A stretch of DNA of 32,000 bases from Promethearchaeota archaeon. Lineage in GTDB: Archaea; Asgardarchaeota; Lokiarchaeia; Sigyniarchaeales; SOKP01. The stretch lies in contig JAUWGH010000002.1 of the NCBI GenBank assembly GCA_030606485.1, positions 300,001-332,000 on the forward strand, read 5' to 3'. The position numbers and the translations under genes are program-made. Below are positions 13,882 to 31,464 of the stretch, in pieces. The notes below the pieces were generated by a model. That model made no database searches. It was not told where the DNA came from and was given only the letters and a program-made list of their open reading frames with translations. Position 1 is the stretch's first letter. Each line of letters opens with the position of its first letter.

Positions 13882-14619
13882 TTGAAATGGCTGCCAAAGT
13901 GGGTTGGAAAGGTATATTCGAAATTGTGGGATGAATTTAGAGAAAACCTGTTTTTTTTTGAAGATGCCAATCAGATTTTGGGAAAAACCACCCCAAATTA
14001 TTTAAGTGAGTTAAAAAAAGCTCAAGCGTTATTTATTTTTAAAAGAAAAGCAAGGAAAAGAATATATCGACTTGTTTCACCAAACTTATTTTCACTTGCT
14101 GTTGCAAACAATTTAGATTTGCGATGGCTAAAACAAGGAGAATATTCAAATATAATCTTATTGATTTTAACGAAATTGAAAGAGAATTTTAGTCAAAAAT
14201 TATCATCTATAGGAATTTATGGCTCTTTAGCTAGAAATGAAGCTAAGAAAGATAGTGATATTGATTTTTTTGTAATATTTAAAGATTTGCCAGATAGTCT
14301 TATTGATAGATTGAAATCACTAAGAAAAATTGATACCTCAAAAGAAATTCAAGAAGAATTGAAATTCTTGAATTTAAATTCCATTTATCCTCGATTTAGC
14401 TATCATCCGATTAAAATAACCGAATTGGGATTAAATTTTTTTACCATTGATATTGTTTTTGATTTAAAAGTTATATATGATTCATTTAATGTGTTGAGCG
14501 ATTTTATATTCGAGGTAAATAAGAAGATCTGGGAGCATAAGATTCAAAGGAAATATTTAGATAAAAATCGTTATTATTTAGATTTAAACCTTTCTTTCGG
14601 TGAGGTTTTTAAGTTTTGA
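13882..14619 (+). CDS. Minimal nucleotidyltransferase (MNT) with an N-terminal winged-helix-like domain; putative antitoxin
   Basis: TTG start. GS-x10-DxD motif (GSLARNEAKKDSDID). About 70-aa basic N-terminal wHTH-like segment. 4-nt overlap with the HEPN gene. Confidence 0.85.
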   Translation: MKWLPKWVGKVYSKLWDEFRENLFFFEDANQILGKTTPNYLSELKKAQALFIFKRKARKRIYRLVSPNLFSLAVANNLDLRWLKQGEYSNIILLILTKLKENFSQKLSSIGIYGSLARNEAKKDSDIDFFVIFKDLPDSLIDRLKSLRKIDTSKEIQEELKFLNLNSIYPRFSYHPIKITELGLNFFTIDIVFDLKVIYDSFNVLSDFIFEVNKKIWEHKIQRKYLDKNRYYLDLNLSFGEVFKF

Positions 14620-15035
14620 ATCAGATTGATTTTGCTAAAGGTTATTTAAAAGAAGCAGAGCTCAGAATAGAGACCGCAGAAACAGTTATAAATAAAAAGG
14701 GATATGCTTATTGCGTACGACAATGTCAAGAGGTTGTTGAACTTGCTTTAAAAGGCGCGTTAAGGCTACTCGGTATTGATTTTCCAAAATGGCATGATAT
14801 TGGTAACATTTTAATTAAAGAAAAGGAAAAATTTCCAGAATGGTTTAAAAAAGAAATACCTGATTTAGCTTCATATTCAACATATCTAGCTGATTTAAGA
14901 GAGTTCACAATGTATGGTAATGAAATAAAGAAAAAAGCCCCCTCTGAAATATTTAATAAATCAAATGCGGAAAATGCCCTGAAAGATGCTAAAAAATGTT
15001 TAATAAATGTCAAAGAATTATTTCGACAAATATGA
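14616..15035 (+). CDS. HEPN domain protein (archaeal COG2250-like), partner of the MNT
   Basis: All-helical pattern with QEVVELALKGAL and PKWHDIG, coupled to the MNT gene (TTGA overlap). Confidence 0.85.
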   Translation: MNQIDFAKGYLKEAELRIETAETVINKKGYAYCVRQCQEVVELALKGALRLLGIDFPKWHDIGNILIKEKEKFPEWFKKEIPDLASYSTYLADLREFTMYGNEIKKKAPSEIFNKSNAENALKDAKKCLINVKELFRQI

Positions 15036-15118: not shown

Positions 15119-15895
15119 ATGGATAAGCAAGCAGTTTTAATATCTATCGCTAAATTAGCAAAAATGATAATCGATGCAAAACAAACAACCGTTTTGACTG
15201 GAGCTGGTATCTCAACTGAAAGTGGAATCCCAGATTTTCGAAGTCCGGGTGGTCTATGGGAAAAATATGCTCCAGAGATTTATGCTAATATTCATAGTTT
15301 TTTAAAGAACCCTACCAAATTTTGGGAGATGGCAGAAAAAATAGCTCCAAACATTTTTAACGCTAAACCCAATCCTGCCCATTATGCATTAGCAGAGCTA
15401 GAGAAAATAAATATGATTAAAGCCATTATCACACAAAATATTGATGGACTTCATCAAAAAGCTGGGTCTGTTATAGTTTATGAAGTTCATGGAAATATCG
15501 AGCGCCTTATTTGTTTAGGTTGTAGAGCTTCTTATCCCAAAAAACAAGTCATAAAGCAACTTAAAAAAGAAAAGAATTATCCTCCAATATGTGATATGTG
15601 CGGAGCTCCTTTAAAGCCTTCAGTCGTTTTATTTGGAGAGGACTTGCCTAAGTTTGAATTTTATCAATCTCATGCACTTTCTGAAAAATCAGATTTAATG
15701 ATTGTAGCGGGTTCTTCCTTAGAAGTTGCACCTGTAAGTGAATTCCCAAATTTAACTATTAAATATGGAGGCAAATTGGTAATTATCAATGACATGCCAA
15801 CACATATGGATAAAAAAGCTGAATTGGTTATTATAGGTAAATTAGGCACCGTTCTTCCACTTGTTGTTAAAAAAGTTAAGGAAAAAGTTTTTTGA
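15119..15895 (+). CDS. cobB: NAD-dependent protein deacylase, Sir2 family
   Basis: GAGISTESGIPDFR, ITQNIDGLHQKAG, EVHGN, zinc site CLGC...CDMC, KPSVVLFGE, GSSLEVAP. Confidence 0.95.
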   Translation: MDKQAVLISIAKLAKMIIDAKQTTVLTGAGISTESGIPDFRSPGGLWEKYAPEIYANIHSFLKNPTKFWEMAEKIAPNIFNAKPNPAHYALAELEKINMIKAIITQNIDGLHQKAGSVIVYEVHGNIERLICLGCRASYPKKQVIKQLKKEKNYPPICDMCGAPLKPSVVLFGEDLPKFEFYQSHALSEKSDLMIVAGSSLEVAPVSEFPNLTIKYGGKLVIINDMPTHMDKKAELVIIGKLGTVLPLVVKKVKEKVF

Positions 15896-17068: not shown

Positions 17069-18196
17069 ATGAAAGAGAAAATTTTAACCGATTTCATTAG
17101 AGAAGGACCTAATTATATTATCCGGCAAATGAAAAAAGAAGAAAAGAAGCAAATTCGAAAACTCGTGTGGCAAATTTTTCCTGTAACTGAAGCGTGGCCT
17201 TTTAGAATAACTCCAAACCTTTTGGTTGTTGAGCATGAAGGTAAATTAGTAGGGGGAGCCGCACTTAGAACCTTTTCTTTACTAAAAAAGCGTAAAGGGG
17301 GTTTTGTAGAATATATTTTTACCGCATCCGAAGTACAAGGAAAGGGTTTTGGTCAGAAATTAGTGGAAGCATCAATTGATCTATTAAAAGAACTGGGTTG
17401 CGATGAACTCATGACTCAAATAAAAGGGGATAATACCAGTTCAAGCAAGTGTTTTTCAACAAGAGGATTTACAATTCTATCTCCTGGTCAACAACTTCGA
17501 AGGTATGGAATCGGGATTGTCCCTTTATGGTTAGGTTCCATGCATATTCTTGCAAAAGGGCAGTTTCTATGGGTTCAAACTACTAAAGAAAAAGATAAGC
17601 CTGGAATACAGTGGATAGGAAGCCTTATTACAAACATACTCATATTCATGCTCTTATCCATCAGACCAGATACGGGTGTTCAGTTTAATTTAGATACTTT
17701 CTTCGCAATCTCTACCATATGGTTGTATTTCTTTAGTGTTCGATATGTTATCATGAAACTAACAGCAAAAGCGTTAAGTTTAAATTTACGGTTTCGACCA
17801 ATTGAAGATTGGTTTGGAATGAGCATTATTATGGGACTTGCAGGGGGAATTTGGATACCCGTGCCTGGAAATCTTTACCCTAAAGAAGATACATGGACCT
17901 ATAGAAATATTGCTAAAAAACTAGGGATCGTGGCGTTAATGGGTTCTTCCATCGTTTTGGCAAGCACTTGGATGTTATACTTCCTTCCTTATTTGTTAAT
18001 CATTCCTGATCAATTCGTTCTATGGTACCATTATGCTCTAACAACGGGAGGTATCTTGACTTTTCTCGATACTGCATTACCTTTCTTCCCGCTAGAAGTA
18101 TATAACGGGAAGAGAATATGGAATTTGAATAAGGTCGTATGGTTGATTATCACTACTCTAGGGATAACTGTCATAATTCTTGCAGTGTTCTTTTAA
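17069..18196 (+). CDS. GNAT acetyltransferase fused to a multi-pass membrane domain resembling a degenerate M50 (site-2) peptidase
   Basis: GNAT motif A FVEYIFTASEVQGKGFGQKLV and motif B NTSSSKCFSTRGF. The C-terminal TM domain contains IPVPGNLY, LGIVALMGS and ALPFFPLEVYNGKRIW. Confidence 0.75.
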   Translation: MKEKILTDFIREGPNYIIRQMKKEEKKQIRKLVWQIFPVTEAWPFRITPNLLVVEHEGKLVGGAALRTFSLLKKRKGGFVEYIFTASEVQGKGFGQKLVEASIDLLKELGCDELMTQIKGDNTSSSKCFSTRGFTILSPGQQLRRYGIGIVPLWLGSMHILAKGQFLWVQTTKEKDKPGIQWIGSLITNILIFMLLSIRPDTGVQFNLDTFFAISTIWLYFFSVRYVIMKLTAKALSLNLRFRPIEDWFGMSIIMGLAGGIWIPVPGNLYPKEDTWTYRNIAKKLGIVALMGSSIVLASTWMLYFLPYLLIIPDQFVLWYHYALTTGGILTFLDTALPFFPLEVYNGKRIWNLNKVVWLIITTLGITVIILAVFF

Positions 18197-18519
18197 TTTT
18201 TTTTCTTTCCCTTTATTTTTAGAAAATATACCTTTTACAGAATCCAGATAGACAAGGGAATAATCCAGAAATAAATATTTAAGAGCACTGAAACCAGTTT
18301 TCCCATAATTGGTGTGAGGATGCTCCAGATGAACCTTTATTTATCAAATTCTCAAAAATCTTTGAGGATAAAACTTGGGGTTAAGGTATTTTTTCAATAT
18401 TTTTCTTAATTTTTAAAAATCGAAAAAATTATAATTGTAAATTGATTTTAGTGCTTAATAATTTAGGATCAAAAAACTTAGTATTTACAAATAATAATAT
18501 TAAAGTCAATAATATTATA

Positions 18520-20163
18520 ATGGAATATCTTGTTGAAGAGCAAAATATTGTTAAAAAAGATTGGAGAACAATAAAATTATCATTTGCTTTAATATATCCG
18601 AATGTTTATCGCATTGGAATGTCTAGTTATTCTATACATCTTTTATATTCATTATTAAATTCAAGAGAAGATATTGTATGTGAAAGATTTTTTCTATCTG
18701 AAAAAATTAGATATCCTGCTTCTCAAGATATAAATGTAAATATGGGGAGAATTTTCAGTATAGAAAATCGAATTTTATTAAAAGAGTTTGATATTTTGGG
18801 ATTTTCAATTCAATTTGAAAATGATTATAGAAATGTTCTTTGGATTTTGGAAGCGGCAGGAATACCTCTAAGAGCCAAAGAACGACGTAAAAGATATAAA
18901 GAAAAGGGGATAATACACCCTTTAATAATTGCTGGTGGACCTTGTGCAACTTCAAATGCTATGGTTTTATCGGAATATATTGATTTATTTTTTATTGGTG
19001 ACGTTGAGCCAAATTTAAATGAATTTTTGGACTTAACAATAGAAATAAAAGAAAAGTTTATCAATTTGAATAATAACTTAGAAGTTTTTCGAAAAATCAA
19101 TGGTATATTTATCCCTTCGATAAAAAATAATTGCAAAAGAGCAATCTTAATAAATTTAGATGAATCAAAAACGCCTTTATTACAAATTAAATCAATTTTT
19201 GATCTACCAATAACCAATCTAAAAGGGCGTAAGAAACAAAAGGGATTATCTTTTGGTGATACATATCTACTGGAAATAAATCGTGGATGCCCATATAATT
19301 GTAAATTTTGTATCTCATGTCATCATAACACACCCTTTAGAAATAAAAGTTTTGAAGATATTATTAAAACGATTGATAAAGCCAGAGAATTTCAAAAGAT
19401 AAAAAAAATTACTTTTATTGGCTCCTGTGTGACAAGCCATCCGAATTTTATTAAGATTTGTAATTATTTATTGAAAAATAACATAGAATTTATGATACCA
19501 TCAATTAGGATTGATCATATTACCAAGAGATTAATTGGAATTTTAGAGAAAGGAAATATCAAAACAATAACAATAGCTCCTGAAACTGGTTTCAATAATC
19601 TTAGATATTCTATAGGAAAAAAGATTTCTAATGAACAAATAATAAAAGCCGCTAAAATTATAAGAACTTCAACTATTAAGAATATAAAATTTTATTTTTT
19701 AATTGGCTTGCCAGGCGAATGGGAGAATGAAGCTGATGCTATTGTGGAATTAATGACAGTTATCAGTGAATTAGGTTTTGAAAAAAATTCTTTAAAAGTC
19801 AATGTAAATCCTTTTATCCCTAAATTAAATACTCCTTTTCAAATCTATACAGATTATTTTTTTAAAGCTAATTTAATGAGCATAAAAAGTAAATTTGAAA
19901 AAATTCAAAATGGAATTAGCAAAATACCTTCAGTAAAATTAAAAATAAAAAATATTAAAAAAATAATAAATGAAGCAGTAATACAAACTCTTTTTTCTTT
20001 GGGGGATATTGAAGTCTCAAAATTATTATTGGATTATTATCATTATGGTGCAACCTTTGGGGCGTTAAAAAGAGTGGTAAAAGAATCAAAATTTTCATTT
20101 GATACATATTTTGAAAAGATTAAAGAAGGATACGGTCCTTTGCCACCTTCGTGTTCAATTTGA
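18520..20163 (+). CDS. Radical SAM protein with an N-terminal B12-binding-like region (uncharacterised family)
   Basis: CxxxCxxC motif in EINRGCPYNCKFC; FALIYPNVYRIGMS, IIAGGPCAT, TIAPETG, FYFLIGLPGE. The ATG at 18520 (MEYLVEEQN) is preferred to the TTG at 18442, whose extra codons look like intergenic DNA. Confidence 0.88.
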   Translation: MEYLVEEQNIVKKDWRTIKLSFALIYPNVYRIGMSSYSIHLLYSLLNSREDIVCERFFLSEKIRYPASQDINVNMGRIFSIENRILLKEFDILGFSIQFENDYRNVLWILEAAGIPLRAKERRKRYKEKGIIHPLIIAGGPCATSNAMVLSEYIDLFFIGDVEPNLNEFLDLTIEIKEKFINLNNNLEVFRKINGIFIPSIKNNCKRAILINLDESKTPLLQIKSIFDLPITNLKGRKKQKGLSFGDTYLLEINRGCPYNCKFCISCHHNTPFRNKSFEDIIKTIDKAREFQKIKKITFIGSCVTSHPNFIKICNYLLKNNIEFMIPSIRIDHITKRLIGILEKGNIKTITIAPETGFNNLRYSIGKKISNEQIIKAAKIIRTSTIKNIKFYFLIGLPGEWENEADAIVELMTVISELGFEKNSLKVNVNPFIPKLNTPFQIYTDYFFKANLMSIKSKFEKIQNGISKIPSVKLKIKNIKKIINEAVIQTLFSLGDIEVSKLLLDYYHYGATFGALKRVVKESKFSFDTYFEKIKEGYGPLPPSCSI

Positions 20164-20899: not shown

Positions 20900-22324
20900 T
20901 TATTTTTTTTTACTTTTATATTCATAATATATACCCCGATCATAATTTTCTTTTTTTTTAGAATGCAAATTCAATAAATCGGTGTGCAATTTGTTAAGAG
21001 ATTCGCCATGATATGGAAAAAAATATATGAAAATTAAACTAATTGAGTGCATCACAGAAGGTGCTACGAATAGGAGGATTTTAATCCCAATGATAGCTTC
21101 TGCAGATTGTGATGGGGCATCCCTAAGGAAACCAAAAATAAGTAAAACGCTTGTTGCAATAATTGGTCCTATACTTTCTGCTGGTTTGAATATAAGGGAA
21201 CTAACTCCTTGGAATATACTTTCCCGTCGACTTCCATGTTTAATTTCATCTTCATCTATTGCCAATGTTAAAAGGGTGAAATCAAAAACTAAAAATCCTG
21301 AAAACATTGAGCTAATAGATATACAAATCCAAATAATTGGAGCGGAATTAGTATTAAGAATTATTGCAAAACAAATTAAATTAACTATAATAAGAGCACA
21401 TTTAAGAATAAAAATTGTCTTTCGTATTCCCCATTTCTTAGCAACTTTCATATAGATAACTTGTGAAATATAACCAAGACCCATTGTAATTATCATAAAC
21501 AACATTGGTACAATCGGACCAGTCCCTAAGATGAATAAAAAGGCAAATAAAAATGATAATCCCATAGATCTTGCAAGGACGTTAAAGAAATTATAACCAG
21601 TTCGTGTTAAAAACGCTCTTGACTTAAGAACATCTTTCATCACTTGCAAAAGGTTATAATCCTCTTCAATTCTTAATTCAGGTCTTTCTTTTAGAATCCG
21701 AACTGCGATAAAGTATAAAATTATTGAGATTATTGCTATAATACCATTCAAGATTTGAAATGCTTGTAAACTGTTTTCAAACAATGGTTGTGCAAGAAAT
21801 ACAGGTATTGCAGCAAAGAGTTGTGAGAGATTAAAAATAAAATATAATTTATTACGCATTTCAATGCTATCAGTCATTTCTGCCATTAAGGACATATATA
21901 ATCCTATTACAATAGAAAGGAGGGTATCGAAAATACATATACTTAATATAAAATGAATGAATATTACTATTTGATCGGTATAACTCCAAGGAAACCACAT
22001 AAAAAAGTAAAGTATTGCCCATATAGGCCCACACCATTTGATATATATTAATCTTCGACTTCCCCATTTATCAATATTAGTACGATCACTTATATTTCCG
22101 GTTATTGGGTCATTAATTGCATTTATTGTTGCGTAAATCACCTGCCCAATAATAAAAAGTGTTTGATTTAAACCTAAAAAATTCCAGAAAAAATTAATAT
22201 ACATTAAAGTAAATATTCCTGCCATCATAAAACTTGGAGATGCTCCAATTCCATAAATAAATACCTGTTTTCGAGGCAACTTCTCGATTATTGATAAATT
22301 TTCTTTTTTTAATGGCTTTTCCAT
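20900..22324 (-). CDS. MFS transporter, glycoside-pentoside-hexuronide (GPH/MelB-like) family
   Basis: About 12 TM helices; INAINDPITGNISDRT, WGSRR, LMAEMT, IDEDEIKHGSRRESIFQG. Confidence 0.88.
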   Translation of the reverse strand: MEKPLKKENLSIIEKLPRKQVFIYGIGASPSFMMAGIFTLMYINFFWNFLGLNQTLFIIGQVIYATINAINDPITGNISDRTNIDKWGSRRLIYIKWCGPIWAILYFFMWFPWSYTDQIVIFIHFILSICIFDTLLSIVIGLYMSLMAEMTDSIEMRNKLYFIFNLSQLFAAIPVFLAQPLFENSLQAFQILNGIIAIISIILYFIAVRILKERPELRIEEDYNLLQVMKDVLKSRAFLTRTGYNFFNVLARSMGLSFLFAFLFILGTGPIVPMLFMIITMGLGYISQVIYMKVAKKWGIRKTIFILKCALIIVNLICFAIILNTNSAPIIWICISISSMFSGFLVFDFTLLTLAIDEDEIKHGSRRESIFQGVSSLIFKPAESIGPIIATSVLLIFGFLRDAPSQSAEAIIGIKILLFVAPSVMHSISLIFIYFFPYHGESLNKLHTDLLNLHSKKKENYDRGIYYEYKSKKK

Positions 22325-22540
22325 TTAATTCACTTTTTTTCAATTTTTAATCTTTATATTTCAAATTTATGGAAAAAATTAGGCATTATATTAAAAATAT
22401 TATTTTTTACGGATAATAATAGTTTTTAAAATTAATCAGTATTGAACGATGTTAAGTTTTAATTTCTTTTGAGTACAACTTCTCTTTTTTATAATTAAAT
22501 CTTATTTAGTATTTTGAAAAAAAAAAAGATTGCTTTTAAA

Positions 22541-23962
22541 TTAAATCAAATCCATAAATCCTTTGTATCCCATATGCATGAGATTATTTTGAATAAAGAG
22601 TTTCTCTAAATCAATTAAACCATCCGATTTGAGTTTTTTAATGTTTTTCTGGAACTTATATATTTCACTCTTGATAAGCTGAGTTGGATTAATCGGATTA
22701 TAAACACCGTTAGTTTTTAATATCCATTCTCGTTGCTGTAGCGTATTAAGAACATTATTAATCTCTGTTTCCTCTACTTTCATTACCTTACTTAACATCG
22801 AGATATCTGCATATCCTAAAGACATAAGGGTTGTATAAGTTTTTGCCTCGACCTCGGATACATTCAAAAGTTGTATAGCAGATATTACTTTCTCATCCAT
22901 TTTGGTTAATTTCGACTTTTTTCTTAGAGACTCTTTCTCGACTTTCGAGAGATCAATTGTATCAGCAACGGTTATTTTCCCAGCATCTACTGCATCATTA
23001 AATAGTTTTATCCCAATATCAGAGCGAATAATTACACTATTCCAATCATCTGCAGGAGCACCGACACTTCCTACTGATATATCTGCAAACTCAGCAGTGT
23101 AGTCCTTACAATATTGACAACTAGGCCAATTATGTACTTTAGTCTCTTTTATTGGAATTTCTTTAACCGACCCATCTTTCTTATAGACTAAGAATTTACC
23201 ACGTGAAATATCAATTTTTTTTACATCATTTATTGGTATTCTAAGTTCTTCTTGAACAGTTTTTCTCATTAAATCATATGAATAATTGGAGGAACAATAA
23301 AGTCCAATAATTAGGCTAAATTTACCAAATTTATCTGAGAGAGGTGGCCACAATTGGAGTTTTCTTGCCGCTTGAATTTGACAGGGCATACCAACAAAAG
23401 CAAGTTTTTCGAGCTCATATTCATATATTGCATCTTTATATGTTAATAAACTTGATGCAATAGTATAACGGGAGCCCGCAGCAGCCAATACTTCTTCTGG
23501 TGTTCTCGCAATAATAGGTTTTGGTTGCCAATTTTCATCCCTACCCGTAAGAAGAGCTCCATCAATTAATCCTGTATTTAGAGCGTGAATAAGTAGTGTA
23601 GTAACTACTCCACCATTTTGAGCTACCTTTAAAACTGATTCATCTGTGCTTTTTGCGACATTAGCTTTTTGATAATATCCTAACAAAGAATTTTTACGAG
23701 TTTGACCATTGAAAAATTCTTTCTCAGCCTCTTCTTCTGGAAAATAAGTTCTTGCGCAATATTTAAAGCACATAGAACACTCCGGATCGTATTCTAGAAG
23801 TTTTGGTTCTTTATCCTTTATATCAATGCGAGGACAAAGTGAAACACATGTTCCGCAAAGGACACAGAGATCTTTATCTAAAACGAAATCATACAAGTCT
23901 CGAAATCCGATACCTTCAACACAAGATTGTAAATAATCAATAATTGGCTCTTTTATTTCCAT
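22541..23962 (-). CDS. FrhB/FdhB-family (F420-dependent oxidoreductase beta subunit) protein with an N-terminal ferredoxin and a C-terminal TrmB-like HTH
   Basis: CVLCGTCVSLCP and CSMCFKYC; QNGGVVTTLL, AAAGSRY, VGMPCQ, IGLYC, CQYCKDYTAEFADISVGSVG. C-terminal LNVSEVEAKTYTTLMSLG...NNVLNTLQQREWI...YNPINP. Confidence 0.88.
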   Translation of the reverse strand: MEIKEPIIDYLQSCVEGIGFRDLYDFVLDKDLCVLCGTCVSLCPRIDIKDKEPKLLEYDPECSMCFKYCARTYFPEEEAEKEFFNGQTRKNSLLGYYQKANVAKSTDESVLKVAQNGGVVTTLLIHALNTGLIDGALLTGRDENWQPKPIIARTPEEVLAAAGSRYTIASSLLTYKDAIYEYELEKLAFVGMPCQIQAARKLQLWPPLSDKFGKFSLIIGLYCSSNYSYDLMRKTVQEELRIPINDVKKIDISRGKFLVYKKDGSVKEIPIKETKVHNWPSCQYCKDYTAEFADISVGSVGAPADDWNSVIIRSDIGIKLFNDAVDAGKITVADTIDLSKVEKESLRKKSKLTKMDEKVISAIQLLNVSEVEAKTYTTLMSLGYADISMLSKVMKVEETEINNVLNTLQQREWILKTNGVYNPINPTQLIKSEIYKFQKNIKKLKSDGLIDLEKLFIQNNLMHMGYKGFMDLI

Positions 23963-24227
23963 TTTTCAATCCTCTGTTATTTTTTTTTATTTATTTGATT
24001 TTAGTTTTTCTATAATCGCACATGTAATATAACCAAAATGATAATTTAAATTTTTATATTTGATAATCCTATATACCTTCTGCAATATATAATCTATGAT
24101 CTTGATAATAGAACCTATCAAATTAATAAATCTTATGAATTTAATAGATAACGTGATTTAAAAGGAAACATTTACTGATTAATTAAAAGAACTATATTAT
24201 TAAATTATAAATCATTTAACGATTGAA

Positions 24228-25639: not shown

Positions 25640-26821
25640 TTATACAATAGGAGCCATTGGAGGTAGTGGAGGTACAACATCGGCTTTCCATTCATCAACT
25701 ACAGGATAATCCCACCAATGTGCGGGAATTTCGGAATATACGCTATATTTTTTGAGCCCCCGTTCAAATGCTCTAGTATTTTTTCTCGAGGCTTTAATCA
25801 CATCTGGTTGTGGATAAAAATAAGCCCCAAATCCACCTTCCTTAGTACCGAGATTCCTAACCATATGCCAGACCTCCCGTTCGCATTCTTCTAGTGTTCC
25901 TTGCGAATATATAGATTGTATATTCACACACCCCCATATCATAATTTTACCACGATAAGGCTTTAAGTCAGGATAACCACTCATTCTTGGACTGTCAAGT
26001 TCAATTGCATCCAAACCCCATTCAATTAAAGATGGTATTAATCGATCTATTTTACCACAGCAATGAATATGGTACTCACATCCCAATTTATGTGCCTCAT
26101 CAAAAATAGTACGATAAAATGGTTCGTAGAATTTGTTAAAAATTTTTGGACTAAAGAAAGGACCCAATTGTTCGCCTAAATCATCACTTAACCAAAAACC
26201 ATGAGGTTCTAATCCATATTTAAAACTCATTTTCATAACTTTCAAATGATATTCTGTTAAGTGATCAAGTAATTTTTTTAATTCTTGTGGGTGTTTTCGA
26301 TGATCCATTAAATAATTAGTAAAACCTCTAATTTTAGAAGCTAATTCAGAAAGTCCAAAAGTATTAATAAACATTCTGTATTTATCGTTGTCAAAAGATT
26401 TTTTCAGCGTATGAGCAAATAAATATCGGCTTTCATCATCAGGATCGGGATAATATTTTGAAATAAATTCTTCATAATTATTCCAATCAGTTAATACTGC
26501 TCTTCCCGGGTGACCCATATTATCTCCGCGCCCTGACATGTTCCAAATGCAGCCCCATTCATCTATATCCTCCCGGGGCAGATGACGCCATTTATTTCCC
26601 TCATATTTGGGGTTTTTTTTTGCCCATTCTGGTTTATCCCATTTAAATTCTACTCCCGCATGTGGAAATAATCCCTCTTCATTTTTATCCCACCCTGGTC
26701 GCCACTTTTTTGAGGGAATCATTAGCAAGGGTAAAATATCTCCTTTGACACCATTAAAGATAGGTGCTCGATCAGGATTTTTAATGTAGATCGCTGCCTT
26801 AACACGCTCAATCGAATTCAT
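25640..26821 (-). CDS. Uroporphyrinogen decarboxylase-fold (URO-D/MtaA-like) protein, not true HemE
   Basis: MNSIERVKAAI...PDRAP, DEWGCIW, LSDDLG, FFSPKIF, HIHCCG, GCVNIQ, GTLEECEREV. The HemE RQAGR motif is absent. Confidence 0.85.
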   Translation of the reverse strand: MNSIERVKAAIYIKNPDRAPIFNGVKGDILPLLMIPSKKWRPGWDKNEEGLFPHAGVEFKWDKPEWAKKNPKYEGNKWRHLPREDIDEWGCIWNMSGRGDNMGHPGRAVLTDWNNYEEFISKYYPDPDDESRYLFAHTLKKSFDNDKYRMFINTFGLSELASKIRGFTNYLMDHRKHPQELKKLLDHLTEYHLKVMKMSFKYGLEPHGFWLSDDLGEQLGPFFSPKIFNKFYEPFYRTIFDEAHKLGCEYHIHCCGKIDRLIPSLIEWGLDAIELDSPRMSGYPDLKPYRGKIMIWGCVNIQSIYSQGTLEECEREVWHMVRNLGTKEGGFGAYFYPQPDVIKASRKNTRAFERGLKKYSVYSEIPAHWWDYPVVDEWKADVVPPLPPMAPIV

Positions 26822-26979: not shown

Positions 26980-28941
26980 ATGAGACAAAATGAATATCCA
27001 ATTCAACCCATATCTTTTATCAAAGTCCAAATTACAGATAAATTCTGGGCGTCTAGAATTGAGACCAATCGTAAGGTAACAATTCCTCTTGCATTTAAGA
27101 AATGTGAAGAAACTGGTCGCATTAACAATTTTTCAAAAGCAGCTGGATTAATTGATGATGATATAGTGCCCTTCTTTCCCTTTGATGATTCTGATGTATA
27201 TAAGATTATTGAAGGTGCAGCCTATTCATTGAATATAAGACCTGATTCTGAGCTTGAAAAATATATTGATGGTATAATTGAAAAAATTGCAGCGGCACAA
27301 GAAGAAGATGGTTATCTTTATACAACTCGTACAATTAATCCTAAAAACCCCCATGATTTGGCGGGAAAAAAGCGTTGGGAGTGGGTTTCACTTAAAAGTC
27401 ATGAATTATATAATTTAGGTCATCTTATAGAGAGTGCCGTGGCGTATTATCAAGCGACAGCTAAGCGTAAGTTATTAGATGTTGCCATTAAAAGTGCTGA
27501 TCTAATAGAAAAAGTGTTTGGACCAGGCAAAATTGAAAGCGCACCTGGGCATCAAGAAATTGAGATGGCATTAGTACGCCTATATCGTGTGACCGATAAT
27601 GAAAAATATTTGAAATTAGCGAAATTTTTTCTTGATATTCGTGGTTCTAAAGATGCGATTGGTTATAATAATTATGTAAAATCAGCAAAAACTCAATTTG
27701 TTAAATGGAGAGATAAATACCTTCAATACAATCAAACTCATAAAAATATCACGCAACAGGATGAAGCAGTTGGACATGTAGTTCGTGCAACATATATGTA
27801 TTCTGGTATGGTAGATGTCGCAGCACTAACAAATGATAAAAATTACGTTGAAGCCGTTGATCGTATTTGGGAGAATGTTGTCTCTAAGAAGATTTACATA
27901 ACAGGTGGTATTGGAGCTAAAGCTCATGGTGAAGCTTTTGATCGGAATTACAAATTACCAAATATAAAAGCGTATAATGAAACTTGCGCCGCAATTGGTA
28001 ATATTTTCTGGAATCATCGTCTTTTCTTATTGCACGGGGATTCTAAATACATAGATGTCTTGGAACGAACGATTTATAACGGTTTCCTTTCAGGAATTTC
28101 TCTAGATGGGAAAAAATTTTTTTATCCTAATCCGCTTGCTTCAAGTGGATTTCACGAAAGAACTGAATGGTTCAAATGTGCTTGCTGTCCTTCAAATATA
28201 GTGCGTTTAATTGCCTCAATTCCCGGTTATGTATATGCACAACATGATGATACATTATATGTTAATCTTTTTGTTAGTAATACTGCTGCAATTTCAATTG
28301 ACGAAAATATTGTATCAATTACTCAAGATACAGAATATCCTTGGGATGGGATAGTAAAAATAACGGTTAATCTTCAAAAAAACTTAGATTTTAATATCGC
28401 AATTCGAATACCAGGTTGGACGCAGAACCAACCAGTGCCAAGTGATTTATATCATTATTTGAAAAAAATTGATGAAAAAGTAGGCCTTAAAGTTAATGGC
28501 AAACCAATTGAAATTATTTGTGAAAAAGGTTATACCCACATTTCACGCACGTGGAAGGATGGAGATATAATTAAATTGGACTTTCCTATGACCATTAGGC
28601 GTGTATTGGCACATGAACAAATTAAAGAAGATAATGGAAAAGTTGCCTTTGAACGCGGTCCGATCGTCTATTGTGTTGAATGGGTAGATAATAAGGCAAA
28701 ATATTTAAGAAATTTGTTTATTGCTGATGATATCGAACTTGCATCTGAATACCGTGAAGATATGTTTAATGGGATTGTTATTATTACAGGTACTGCTCAT
28801 TACCTTAAACATAATGAAGATAGGAAAAAAATTATTAAAAGTAAACTAAATTTTCTCGCAATACCTTATTATGCTTGGGCACATCGCGGAAAGGGTGAAA
28901 TGATAGTATGGATATTACGTGATTTAAATGCTTTTAAATAA
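26980..28941 (+). CDS. GH127 glycoside hydrolase (beta-L-arabinofuranosidase-like, DUF1680)
   Basis: FDDSDVYK, HELYNLGHL, GHQEIE, GHVVRATY, YITGGIG, YNETCAAIG, WFKCACCPSN, RGPIVYC, IPYYAWAHRG. Confidence 0.93.
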   Translation: MRQNEYPIQPISFIKVQITDKFWASRIETNRKVTIPLAFKKCEETGRINNFSKAAGLIDDDIVPFFPFDDSDVYKIIEGAAYSLNIRPDSELEKYIDGIIEKIAAAQEEDGYLYTTRTINPKNPHDLAGKKRWEWVSLKSHELYNLGHLIESAVAYYQATAKRKLLDVAIKSADLIEKVFGPGKIESAPGHQEIEMALVRLYRVTDNEKYLKLAKFFLDIRGSKDAIGYNNYVKSAKTQFVKWRDKYLQYNQTHKNITQQDEAVGHVVRATYMYSGMVDVAALTNDKNYVEAVDRIWENVVSKKIYITGGIGAKAHGEAFDRNYKLPNIKAYNETCAAIGNIFWNHRLFLLHGDSKYIDVLERTIYNGFLSGISLDGKKFFYPNPLASSGFHERTEWFKCACCPSNIVRLIASIPGYVYAQHDDTLYVNLFVSNTAAISIDENIVSITQDTEYPWDGIVKITVNLQKNLDFNIAIRIPGWTQNQPVPSDLYHYLKKIDEKVGLKVNGKPIEIICEKGYTHISRTWKDGDIIKLDFPMTIRRVLAHEQIKEDNGKVAFERGPIVYCVEWVDNKAKYLRNLFIADDIELASEYREDMFNGIVIITGTAHYLKHNEDRKKIIKSKLNFLAIPYYAWAHRGKGEMIVWILRDLNAFK

Positions 28942-28976: not shown

Positions 28977-30401
28977 TTAAAATTGAGGGAGCCACTTAGC
29001 TTCAGCTTCAAACATTTCATCAACCATAATTCGAATCTCTTCTGGGGAACACACACTAGCAGTATTTGGGTCAAGTAGCACAGCTTGATATATTTTTTCC
29101 CGGTCTAGTTCGAGAGCTCCCTCGACTGCGGCTTTTTGTACCATGATATTTGAGATACATAGTGCTTGACAGATGGTAGGTAAGACAATGCCTCCCTGTG
29201 GATGTATTCCATGACTATCCGCAAAAACTGGTACTTCCACACAACACTCCTTAGGAAGGTTAGTAATTAAACCACCCTCTTTGTTCATAACATTTCCATT
29301 AAACCAAAATGGTTTGTTTGTTTCCATAGCATTAATAATGTGTGAAGCATATTCTCCCGAGGGTTTTTCCTTATATGGAAGTTTTTTTCGTTTGAGTTTT
29401 CTCTGGAAATTTTTATCCATTTTCCCTTGAAATATGACTTGCTGGTTATAATCTGATGCCTGCTCTAAGTTAGAAAGCCAGTGCAGGTTGCTTTTATATT
29501 TTTCCAAAAGTTCTGTACGTTTTCGATAATAAGGAAGATATTCACTCAGATGCCCTGAGGATTCTGTCATAAAATATCCACCTGTTGCCTTCATCATATC
29601 ATAACGCACTTTCTCTAATTCAATTAAATTTGGGTTATCTTGAATGGCTTTCATAATTAACGGGTAAGCATTTTGCCATGTTGAATTGGACTTATTTGAG
29701 TCTTTATACCAAACTTCGAGAAACCAAGCCATGTGGTTAATCCCTGCACATAAAAAACTGAATTCTTCTGGCTTTGCTCTGATACAACCACGTAAAATTG
29801 CAACTGTACCCTGAACGCCATGACAAAGACCAACCGTAGAATCTGGAACAAGTGAATTACAATACCATGTATTCATAGCCATTGGATTAGTATAATTAAG
29901 TAATATCGGTTTTATTCCATCATTTTCTACATTATATCCAATTTCTTGAATATCTTCTAAAAATGATTTAAAAAATGGTGCCGTTCGGAGGAAACGAAAG
30001 ATTCCACCGGGTCCTAGTGTATCCCCAACAGTTTGAGACACTCCATATTTGAAGGGTATTTCAACATCTAATTTAAAGGCCTCAAGCCCACCTATATGTA
30101 CTGTATTGATAATATACTTCGAATCCTGAATTGCTTTCTTCTGATTAGTAGTTTTTTCGAAAACAATTCCCTCTAGCTCTTGAGAATAATTATCCTTATA
30201 TTTTTGCATGTAATTAAACATTAAATCTAAACGATGAGAATCTAAATCTTCAAGACAAATTATTGTATCCTTCTGAAGCGCAGGAAATGAAGCAATATCG
30301 GTGAGTAAATTTTGCCCAAATACTAAAGAACCTGCACCAATAAATGCAATTTTTAACATAATCAGTGGATTGAATTTTTTCTGATTCTTAATATTTTCCA
30401 T
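28977..30401 (-). CDS. melA: GH4 NAD+/Mn2+-dependent glycosidase, alpha-galactosidase (MelA-like); start is 30401 or 30359
   Basis: KIAFIGAGS, QTVGDTLGPGG, NYTNPM, GLCHG, GINHMAW, ESSGHLSEY. Confidence 0.88.
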   Translation of the reverse strand: MENIKNQKKFNPLIMLKIAFIGAGSLVFGQNLLTDIASFPALQKDTIICLEDLDSHRLDLMFNYMQKYKDNYSQELEGIVFEKTTNQKKAIQDSKYIINTVHIGGLEAFKLDVEIPFKYGVSQTVGDTLGPGGIFRFLRTAPFFKSFLEDIQEIGYNVENDGIKPILLNYTNPMAMNTWYCNSLVPDSTVGLCHGVQGTVAILRGCIRAKPEEFSFLCAGINHMAWFLEVWYKDSNKSNSTWQNAYPLIMKAIQDNPNLIELEKVRYDMMKATGGYFMTESSGHLSEYLPYYRKRTELLEKYKSNLHWLSNLEQASDYNQQVIFQGKMDKNFQRKLKRKKLPYKEKPSGEYASHIINAMETNKPFWFNGNVMNKEGGLITNLPKECCVEVPVFADSHGIHPQGGIVLPTICQALCISNIMVQKAAVEGALELDREKIYQAVLLDPNTASVCSPEEIRIMVDEMFEAEAKWLPQF

Positions 30402-31464
30402 ATTTTAATGCTGCGGTCATAAAAGTCTTGACATTTTCAAGAGGAATTTTTTTAAAAATGACCGTGCTGGGACCTAATATGAAATGTCTGTTATCTTTAA
30501 GCGCATCCATTAATTTTTTTACATGATTATCAACATGCTCTGGGGTGCCGTATGGAAAAACATCACTAACATCTCCAAAACCAATAACTACAAAATCGGG
30601 AAAATGCTCATTTATATAGAAAGGATCGCAGCCACCTTCCCAGCCTTGTAATCCTCGAAATCCTGCCTTCTGAAGAGATGGAATCAATTCTGTTGGATCA
30701 CCATCAGTATGAACTTGAGGGATCATTCCTGCGTCCGATATAATAGAATTAATTTCTTTATAATAATTTAAAAAATCCTGTTCCCAACGTTCAGATGAAA
30801 TCATAGTTCGACCTTTGTATGCGACATCATCTAATATATTTAAGATCTTTCCTCTTCTACCAGTTGCCTCAATCAAACCTTCAATTTTTAGTTTCATTAT
30901 TTCCGCATAAAATTTTATTAATTCTCTATAAAGCTTGGTTTTTTTCCGAAAATTACGGCTAAATATAGGCATCCCCATACTCTGCCAAACCCTATCAAAA
31001 ATCCCGTCAACCATTAATACCGGAAATATTAAAGGAGAAAACTTTTCATATTGTGAGATCACCTTTTTAATTTGCTTGCTTCTATCAACTTGTTTTAAAT
31101 TTGCCCGGAGTTTATCCAAAATCTCCATGGTATGTATGTACCCTCCTTGATAATAAGGAGAATCACTATGGAAAGCTTCTCCACTTGCCTTAATCCTAAA
31201 TTTATTGCCTTTACTATCTTTTATCTTAATTGAATTGATTTTAACACTTGAAGGAAATGACGCAAAAATTGCATCAAATCCTAAAACGAACGGAATATCA
31301 AAATATGGGATATTAAATAATTTTCCTTTATAATTTTCCAGTAACTCATCCTTATATTGGATAACAAACTCATCTCTAATGTATTGAACATGAGTAGGAA
31401 CGCGATCTATTTTTTTTCGTTCATCATCATTAAAAACAGCAAGATATCGTTCACAGGCATTCAT
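30388..31464 (-). CDS. Second URO-D-fold protein, not true HemE
   Basis: MNACERYLAVF...DRVP, LDDVAYK, HTDG, GDVSDVFPYGTPEHV, FILGPS. Its stop overlaps the start region of the GH4 gene. Confidence 0.85.
   Translation of the reverse strand: MNACERYLAVFNDDERKKIDRVPTHVQYIRDEFVIQYKDELLENYKGKLFNIPYFDIPFVLGFDAIFASFPSSVKINSIKIKDSKGNKFRIKASGEAFHSDSPYYQGGYIHTMEILDKLRANLKQVDRSKQIKKVISQYEKFSPLIFPVLMVDGIFDRVWQSMGMPIFSRNFRKKTKLYRELIKFYAEIMKLKIEGLIEATGRRGKILNILDDVAYKGRTMISSERWEQDFLNYYKEINSIISDAGMIPQVHTDGDPTELIPSLQKAGFRGLQGWEGGCDPFYINEHFPDFVVIGFGDVSDVFPYGTPEHVDNHVKKLMDALKDNRHFILGPSTVIFKKIPLENVKTFMTAALKYGKY

Follow-up and report, generated by a model that had tools for sequence, protein, structure and literature searches.

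Why should an F420-dependent redox enzyme carry the DNA-binding module of a transcriptional regulator? The question is raised by a gene in a 32,000-nucleotide stretch of DNA (positions 300,001 to 332,000 of contig JAUWGH010000002.1, hereafter the window) from a Promethearchaeota archaeon of the Lokiarchaeia. Its product combines a ferredoxin-like domain, an FrhB-type core and a C-terminal tail of the TrmB type. Many archaeal redox complexes use FrhB-type modules as their plug-in F420 interface, and the wiring of F420, ferredoxin and Hdr/Mvh complexes in Asgard archaea is central to models of syntrophic metabolism, and hence of eukaryogenesis. A preliminary description of the window proposed a transcription factor that reads the F420 or ferredoxin redox state to control carbohydrate uptake. 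The reading favoured here, at a probability of roughly 0.55, is that the protein is an active, stand-alone F420/ferredoxin oxidoreductase similar in architecture to the zeta subunit of CO dehydrogenase and to FpoF, functionally linked to Hdr/Mvh-type electron bifurcation, with a TrmB-derived tail that dimerises or docks the enzyme. Because the TrmB DNA-reading residues have been lost, pairing or docking of the enzyme is a likelier role for the tail than that of an F420-sensing switch for sugar uptake.

A redox enzyme joined to a TrmB-type module

The joining of a complete F420/flavin/Fe-S redox enzyme to a TrmB DNA-binding module is real. Pfam places Fer4 at residues 27-44, FrhB_FdhB_N (PF04422) at residues 102-172 (4e-25; 88.2 bits against a cutoff of 22), FrhB_FdhB_C (PF04432) at residues 185-335 (2e-43; 148.2 bits against 23.3) and TrmB (PF01978) at residues 366-422 (2.8e-8; 33.9 bits against a gathering score of 25.6), and NCBIfam likens residues 1-82 to the C-terminal ferredoxin part of FrhG. 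The full-length AlphaFold2 model has a predicted local distance difference test score (pLDDT) of 86.7 and a predicted template-modelling score of 0.89. The anatomy given in the preliminary description, namely a ferredoxin domain, both FrhB domains and a TrmB winged helix-turn-helix (wHTH) with its following helix, is borne out by Pfam and the structure models. Its open reading frame is also correct in position, but the strand is corrected to minus. The gene, its parts and its flanking gaps are as follows:

22541-23962, minus strand: whole gene (P0001, 473 residues) with ferredoxin-like domain, FrhB core and TrmB-type tail, from the open reading frame, Pfam, NCBIfam and AlphaFold2
23687-23962, minus strand: N-terminal ferredoxin-like Fe-S domain, residues 1-92, from Pfam, TIGR03294 (positions 145-228) and alignment to 8riu_B from residue 11 onward
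22898-23686, minus strand: FrhB F420/FAD/[4Fe-4S] oxidoreductase core (FAD, flavin adenine dinucleotide), residues 93-355, from Pfam, NCBIfam, alignments and Foldseek
22688-22897, minus strand: TrmB-type wHTH, residues 356-425, from Pfam, the model and superposition on TrmBL2
22733-22777, minus strand: recognition helix, residues 396-410, from alignments with TrmB regulators
22544-22687, minus strand: amphipathic C-terminal helix region, residues 426-473, from conservation and the models
23963-24227, no strand: upstream intergenic region of 265 nucleotides, shared with a divergent Kre9_KNH-domain gene, with a dyad at 24102-24121
22325-22540, no strand: gap of 216 nucleotides before an MFS_2 transporter gene (20900-22324, minus strand)

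The same architecture recurs widely. A homologue search yielded at least 362 homologues, and among the 120 listed, to which the following figures refer, all are full length (469-497 residues, 96-100% query coverage, 55-93% identity) and 101 carry a precomputed PF01978 call. Their named sources include metagenome-assembled genomes of Promethearchaeota, Lokiarchaeota, Hodarchaeales, Thorarchaeota and Heimdallarchaeota. Using a profile of the tail, the fusion was found in 29 of 301 sampled Asgard genomes, with open frames of 470-505 residues wherever the contig is complete. These homologues and open frames rule out an assembly artefact, a concern raised in the preliminary description, and the fusion is genuine.

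The redox half of the protein is highly conserved. Across 61 sequences, seven cysteines of the ferredoxin-like domain (C33, C36, C39, C43, C62, C65 and C69) are invariant, as are C194, C223, C282 and C285 of the core, the [4Fe-4S] ligands next to the FAD. These core cysteines align with the cluster motifs of FrhB (9r51_B) and of zeta (8riu_B). The FrhB of M. thermolithotrophicus gives a strong full-length alignment (E 1.8e-61) in which the cysteine motifs are also matched. Foldseek searches with the core of the model return 8riu_B (E 8e-31, 35% identity) and 9r51_B (E 1e-26, 43% identity, template-modelling score (TM) of 0.85 on the target), as well as Fsr. Among 121 orthologues, mean column entropy is 1.05 bits in the FrhB core, 1.17 in the ferredoxin domain and 1.57-1.65 in the tail. 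From the FrhB-family matches and the conserved cofactor ligands, we infer that the core binds FAD and exchanges hydride with F420.

Membership of a particular FrhB class is less simple. The protein passes the NCBIfam FrhB subfamily model PRK09325 (282 bits against a cutoff of 269), misses the equivalog FrhB model TIGR03289 (265.4 against 331.5) and falls far under the cutoffs of the FpoF models (180 against 475 and 176 against 444). A canonical Frh hydrogenase beta subunit was rejected, its partners FrhA and FrhG being absent from the genome: the best model matches there reach 149.7 bits against a cutoff of 392.5 and 73.9 against 245.5, respectively. The two [NiFe] large subunits of the genome are Mvh-like. 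As for the cofactor, the preliminary description had suggested looking for F420 biosynthesis genes, and the genome does encode CofD, CofE and CofH, each above its cutoff. A CofG-like gene adjoins CofH, and together these genes indicate that F420 is made.

The assignment of the C-terminal domain as a wHTH is upheld by its Pfam score above cutoff and by its TrmBL2-like fold. In the model, helices span residues 357-364, 370-382, 387-394 and 398-410, with wing strands at 414-417 and 420-423. The best structural match of the tail is TrmBL2 (TM 0.72, root-mean-square deviation 2.5-2.8 A, about 111 columns), and the tail of the full-length model likewise matches TrmBL2 and other archaeal wHTH proteins in Foldseek. 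When the tail is modelled on its own, the wHTH and two wing strands are followed by a single helix spanning 426-470; in the full-length model this region forms four helices of higher pLDDT. The better modelling of the distal helix in the full-length protein suggests that it packs on something, with the proviso that the comparison is confounded by alignment depth (61 versus 20 sequences). The C-terminal helix has conserved hydrophobic positions in a heptad-like pattern (430, 434, 437, 441, 444, 448, 452 and 455/456), and P426, E433, L452, N459 and N460 are invariant in this region. TrmB dimerises via the equivalent helix (PMC4158304). The protein ends 48 residues past the wing, and has no C-terminal sugar- or effector-binding domain like that of TrmB proper and TrmBL1.

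The recognition helix of the tail

Alignment of the fusion tails (n = 121, 50% mean identity) with stand-alone TrmB-like regulators matching the same tail profile (n = 97, 34% mean identity) indicates that the TrmB DNA-reading motif is lost across the fusion family while the fold is kept. In the window protein, the acidic stretch EETEINNVLNTL (residues 397-408) lies within the recognition helix, and the TrmB motif P-(R/Y)-(S/T)-(R/K)-(I/V)-Y is swapped for V-E-E-T-E-I-N, which places Asn at the Tyr column and Glu at the preceding basic column. Across the alignment, the Tyr column contains Tyr in 88 of 96 regulators (0.59 bits), compared with Ile in 38, Arg in 20 and Asn in 15 of the fusions (3.04 bits), where Gln is also common. 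The basic column before it is Arg or Lys in 68 of the 96 regulators, and Glu (31), Leu (31) or Ile (16) predominate among the 121 fusions. At the Pro column, Pro is present in 67 regulators; 94% of fusions have Glu or Asp there (residue 397). The outlier fusions P0141 (from Argoarchaeum) and P0142 have Glu at the Tyr position, and the two genuine TrmB paralogues of the window's genome retain R-(I/V)-Y. The residue concerned, Tyr50, is reported to be important for DNA binding in TrmB, TrmBL1, TrmBL2 and MalR (PMC4158304).

Variation within the 121 orthologues points the same way. The residues that determine the fold of the tail are nearly invariant, and most exposed positions of the recognition helix (398-400, 402-403 and 406-407) are among the most variable of the tail, at 2.4-3.1 bits. 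Set against the FrhB core mean of 1.05 bits, the DNA-binding surface is less constrained than the sensor, the reverse of what is usual for orthologous regulators. Furthermore, S381, L382, M394, K395, W413, N418, E433 and I434 are conserved in the fusions and variable in the regulators, and these fusion-specific constraints point to a new interaction surface. The preliminary description had added the caveat that an acidic recognition helix might mean oligomerisation, and this is the direction that the evidence favours.

On the favoured reading, the fusion would be a catalytically competent, free-standing F420-dependent flavo-iron-sulfur oxidoreductase, with electrons passing between F420/F420H2 and an Fe-S partner of low potential, which would be ferredoxin or a complex of the Hdr/Mvh type. 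At its C-terminus it would have captured a complete TrmB module for DNA binding, whose fold is kept and whose DNA-reading residues are lost. The tail would now serve as a homodimerisation or docking device, in place of the short dimerising extension of zeta.

The same surface also bears on whether the tail might hold the enzyme on chromatin without reading sequence, in the manner of TrmBL2. The best structural match of the tail is indeed this chromatin protein, non-specific binding could tolerate a variable recognition face, and some basic residues are kept. However, TrmBL2 itself retains Tyr50, the mean net charge is about -0.5 for the wHTH and about 0 for the recognition helix, and there is no known rationale for keeping this enzyme on chromatin, all of which makes non-specific tethering very improbable. 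Net charge of the wHTH was dropped as a discriminator between fusions and regulators, since the first 75 residues of one genuine TrmB paralogue from this genome are acidic too.

Gene neighbourhood, spread and regulation

The assembly that contains the window (3.75 Mb, 29% G+C, 100% complete) has 12 FrhB-family loci, of which this one alone bears a TrmB tail. The fusion is flanked upstream by the divergent Kre9_KNH-domain gene and downstream, on the same strand, by the MFS_2 transporter and then a DUF6125 gene. The preliminary description was thus correct that the fusion lies upstream of, and co-oriented with, a transporter of the GPH type, and the 216-nucleotide gap, the frequent role of TrmB proteins as sugar regulators (PMC4158304) and the wealth of glycoside hydrolases in the window all lend some appeal to a factor that senses F420 or ferredoxin and controls sugar uptake. 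Synteny contradicts it. In genome G129 of the same genus, where the orthologue is 97% identical, the transporter is missing between the fusion and the DUF6125 gene; the transporter is an indel within the genus. No sugar transporter, nor any other sugar gene, stands beside the fusion in any of the 18 loci from other genera. Given also the absence of the TrmB sugar-binding effector domain, the loss of the DNA-reading motif and the lack of a shared operator (see below), control of carbohydrate uptake is the least probable of the explanations considered, and that proposal of the preliminary description is not supported.

The neighbours found in other genera are of a different kind. Redox genes lie within about 9 kb of the fusion in 13 of the 18 loci. 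These comprise HdrA-like genes (some split by an in-frame TGA), MvhD, HdrD/GlcF-like CCG proteins, a GlcD-like FAD oxidase, FrhB paralogues, an Mpt_N-domain protein, and a wHTH(DUF7347)-HdrA-MvhD fusion followed by an MvhG-like gene. By comparison, just 14% of the window's genome is as close to a gene of the HdrA, HdrD, MvhD or FrhB family; the nominal P of 4e-8 for this association is overstated because the loci are related. In Borr/Sifarchaeia the fusion is divergent from a seleno-HdrA-MvhD-FrhB operon. The whole 32-kb window contains no hydrogenase or dehydrogenase partner, and the Hdr/Mvh-type clusters of its genome are on other contigs, far from the fusion. The lack of partner subunits reported in the preliminary description therefore holds for the window's genus and not elsewhere. 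No CO dehydrogenase or Fwd genes occur within about 9 kb in 21 loci (cluster representatives annotated).

The gene is monocistronic in all 21 loci, with upstream gaps of 186-563 nucleotides and a co-oriented downstream gene within 60 nucleotides in only one. Among the neighbouring FrhB paralogues, 7 of 11 are within 31 nucleotides of such a gene. This layout suits an enzyme that acts on its own better than a subunit encoded in an operon.

Another proposal is that the tail binds a different protein, such as an HdrA-MvhD-type complex, and not a further copy of the fusion, and so plugs the F420-reductase module onto a flavin-based bifurcating enzyme encoded elsewhere. It would account for the association with HdrA, MvhD, HdrD-like, GlcD-like and Mvh hydrogenase genes, for the fusion-specific conserved surface residues off the DNA-reading face, and for the wHTH(DUF7347)-HdrA-MvhD fusion in the same neighbourhoods; moreover, FrhB-type modules are known to plug into CO dehydrogenase and Fwd complexes (PMC11493965). 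Yet zeta docks via its N-terminal ferredoxin domain and not its C-terminus (PMC11493965), the layout of the 21 loci indicates no co-transcription with any partner, and the clusters near the fusion already hold an FrhB paralogue of their own. Homology of the TrmB tail to the DUF7347 wHTH was also considered and rejected (hhalign probability 0.07). A docking subunit of this kind is accordingly unlikely.

Several features of these redox neighbourhoods deserve record in their own right. The DUF7347-HdrA-MvhD protein, whose N-terminal domain is wHTH-like, gives these genomes a second fusion of a wHTH with redox domains: it is encoded outside the window at G000 C8:258275-260806 (minus) and at L054:15064-17613, with a length of 843-849 residues, and the genes after it on C8 encode an MvhG-like small subunit and an Mvh-like [NiFe] large subunit (C8:256216-258312). 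At G000 C10:156577-158304 (minus), also outside the window, an HdrA-like gene is interrupted just once in frame, by a TGA at codon 115 (DDCGI*VLAP), as would fit an HdrA that contains selenocysteine, and an Mvh-like hydrogenase large subunit at C5:253268-254753 also contains one TGA. A 353-residue protein at G000 C8:142108-143169 (minus), again outside the window, combines a weak N-terminal TrmB-like helix-turn-helix match (19.9 bits) with a C-terminal Cys-rich 2x[4Fe-4S] ferredoxin-like part, and may be another fusion of these two kinds of domain. A recurrent pair (L057:6903-8588, L054:493-1134; G000 C8:261313-267148) consists of a 213-residue protein without a Pfam match and a 560-residue Mpt_N/NAD-binding protein, Mpt_N being the N-terminal domain of methylene-tetrahydromethanopterin dehydrogenase; the pair adjoins the fusion in five loci, and in the window's genome it is present in duplicate next to the Mvh/HdrA cluster. 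Finally, tandem Ras/Roc/Arf-like small GTPase genes are located directly downstream of FrhB'-GlcD-HdrD genes in Borr/Sifarchaeia (L043:14744-16894, L042:14581-16010).

The distribution of the fusion is patchy. Among the sampled Asgard genomes it is carried by 22 of 68 in the window's own family, by all five in family f18 (Borrarchaeota/Sifarchaeum) and by 1 of 28 in f7, and it is inconstant even among the 100%-complete genomes of a single genus (11 of 22 in g2, 6 of 28 in g4). The gene tree is discordant with genome taxonomy. The fusion is an accessory and probably mobile gene, and there is a suggestion, with moderate support (85/85), of lateral transfer between the window's genus and Borr/Sifarchaeia. 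When the tail profile was run against 1.84 billion representative proteins, the matches were of three classes: partial copies of this fusion, a small number of more distant fusions (33-41% identity), and the N-terminal domains of TrmB-like regulators of 245-290 residues, which are the nearest non-fusion relatives of the tail. Stand-alone tail proteins were considered and rejected, since the short strong matches are contig-edge fragments of the same fusion; one tail-matching protein of 133 residues, P0129, is on a contig of 664 nucleotides. The fusion that diverges most is that of Ca. Argoarchaeum ethanivorans and Ca. Ethanoperedens thermophilum, so the architecture spans Asgard archaea and ethanotrophic Methanosarcinales. 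No publication describing an FrhB-TrmB fusion was found in the literature searched; the Ethanoperedens study just mentions numerous unexplored frhB homologues.

Some of the evidence weighs against the favoured reading. The tail is no remnant but a complete, well-preserved TrmB DNA-binding module, which persists in two phyla even where identity has fallen to 33%. It still has several basic residues (K374, R411 and K395) of the kind that typically make backbone contacts in a wHTH. The layout of the gene, which is monocistronic, frequently points away from a redox operon and has one copy for about 12 FrhB loci, is also the classic one of a local regulator. In addition, MreA, a genuine TrmB-family regulator, has Ser instead of Tyr (PMC4158304), and because of this precedent the loss of the motif weakens the DNA-binding explanation without excluding DNA binding.

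The explanation that gains from these points is a trigger enzyme, a class represented by PutA, the proline-utilisation flavoenzyme with a DNA-binding domain that regulates transcription by its flavin redox state. By analogy, the redox state of the FrhB FAD and Fe-S centres, set by F420H2/F420 or ferredoxin, would control DNA binding by a dimeric TrmB-derived domain with a non-canonical recognition surface, and the targets would be Hdr/Mvh/FrhB-type redox operons rather than sugar uptake. The long-retained wHTH and dimerisation helix with its TrmBL2 fold, the long upstream region, the divergent operon of Borr/Sifarchaeia and the enrichment of redox neighbours over the genomic background are all in keeping with such a role. 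Opposed to it are the poor conservation of the DNA-reading face, the acidic residues at its key positions, and the distance of the fusion from every Hdr cluster in the window's genome. Nor was a shared operator or regulon signal detected, either in 19 upstream regions or by a genome dyad count. No palindromic half-site common to the 19 regions stood out beyond shuffles, and the dyad TTGATA-N8-TATCAA (24102-24121) has two copies in the genome where 2.05 are expected; the AT-richness of the DNA and the variability of the helix restrict the power of both tests. Inverted repeats in both flanking intergenic regions are at the chance level for AT-rich DNA, and footprinting within the genus is uninformative at 97% identity. 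A PutA-like trigger enzyme is therefore a less likely but still serious reading, the strongest competitor to an oxidoreductase with a pairing or docking tail. Slightly less likely again is its fuller form, in which a lineage-specific recognition surface controls Hdr/Mvh-type electron-bifurcation genes in both Asgard archaea and ethanotrophic Methanosarcinales.

The window holds other genes of interest. At 13882-15035 (plus strand), overlapping nucleotidyltransferase (Polbeta/NTP_transf_2) and HEPN genes have the layout of an MNT-HEPN toxin-antitoxin pair, and are followed by a Sir2-family gene at 15119-15895. A GNAT acetyltransferase with a long C-terminal extension (17069-18196, plus strand) has no counterpart in the other two loci examined from the genus, and a radical SAM protein with Radical_SAM_N2 (18442-20163, plus strand) is kept in all three. 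Two paralogues of the URO-D family (25640-26821 and 30388-31464, both minus strand; weak matches of 43-45 bits) flank GH127 (26980-28941) and GH4 (28977-30401) genes, and may be methyltransferase-like or decarboxylase-like proteins in a sugar-utilisation neighbourhood.

Significance and comparison with known systems

The fusion family is conserved but patchy, lies near Hdr/Mvh clusters and bears a domain recruited from a regulator. If the tail only dimerises or docks the enzyme, the family would clearly illustrate how a metabolic enzyme can take over a DNA-binding fold as a module for protein-protein contacts. A tail that still bound DNA would couple transcription directly to the redox state of F420, and a true trigger enzyme would, to judge by the literature searched, be the first archaeal transcription factor to respond to F420.

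The closest solved relatives of the redox part are the zeta subunit of the CO dehydrogenase/acetyl-CoA decarbonylase/synthase (ACDS) complex of Ca. Ethanoperedens thermophilum (8RIU chain B) and FwdI (8RJA chain E). Zeta has a two-cluster ferredoxin domain that docks on its partner (residues 1-83), an F420 reductase domain (residues 84-349) and a C-terminal extension (residues 350-370) that promotes a homodimeric interface, an extension that FwdI lacks (PMC11493965). The fusion resembles zeta in its order of domains, with a ferredoxin-like domain at the N-terminus, then an F420-reductase domain of the FrhB type with [4Fe-4S] and FAD, and from about residue 350 a C-terminal appendage; the sequences match with an E of 8e-62 over residues 22-366, and the structures with a Foldseek TM of 0.83 on the target at 35% identity. 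The TrmB module starts at about residue 351, the same point as the dimerising extension of zeta. However, the zeta appendage is a dimerising segment of 20 residues (PMC11493965), in contrast to the 120-residue TrmB DNA-binding module of the fusion. Zeta is also encoded in an ACDS operon and bound to CO dehydrogenase (PMC11493965), unlike the monocistronic fusion with no CO dehydrogenase context.

The whole core of the fusion aligns with FrhB (9R51, 3ZFS, 4OMF, 6QGR), at 43% identity to 9r51_B and with the cluster cysteines conserved, but true FrhB has neither the N-terminal ferredoxin domain nor the tail. FpoF shares the ferredoxin-FrhB architecture and a possible role as a stand-alone link between ferredoxin and F420, and differs in lacking the wHTH tail. 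This F420H2 dehydrogenase subunit has also been reported as a soluble ferredoxin:F420 oxidoreductase in Methanosarcina.

With TrmB, TrmBL1, TrmBL2 and MreA, the tail shares the full layout of the DNA-binding domain, a wHTH followed by a long amphipathic helix. It differs in its place, at the C-terminal end of an enzyme where the regulators have theirs at the N-terminus, in having no sugar-binding effector domain, and in the loss of the Tyr motif from a recognition face that is hypervariable in the fusions. The resemblance to PutA, in which a redox-active flavoenzyme is likewise joined to a DNA-binding fold, is an analogy only: the folds and domain order are unrelated, and whereas the DNA-binding residues of PutA are conserved and its operator is known, neither is true of the fusion.

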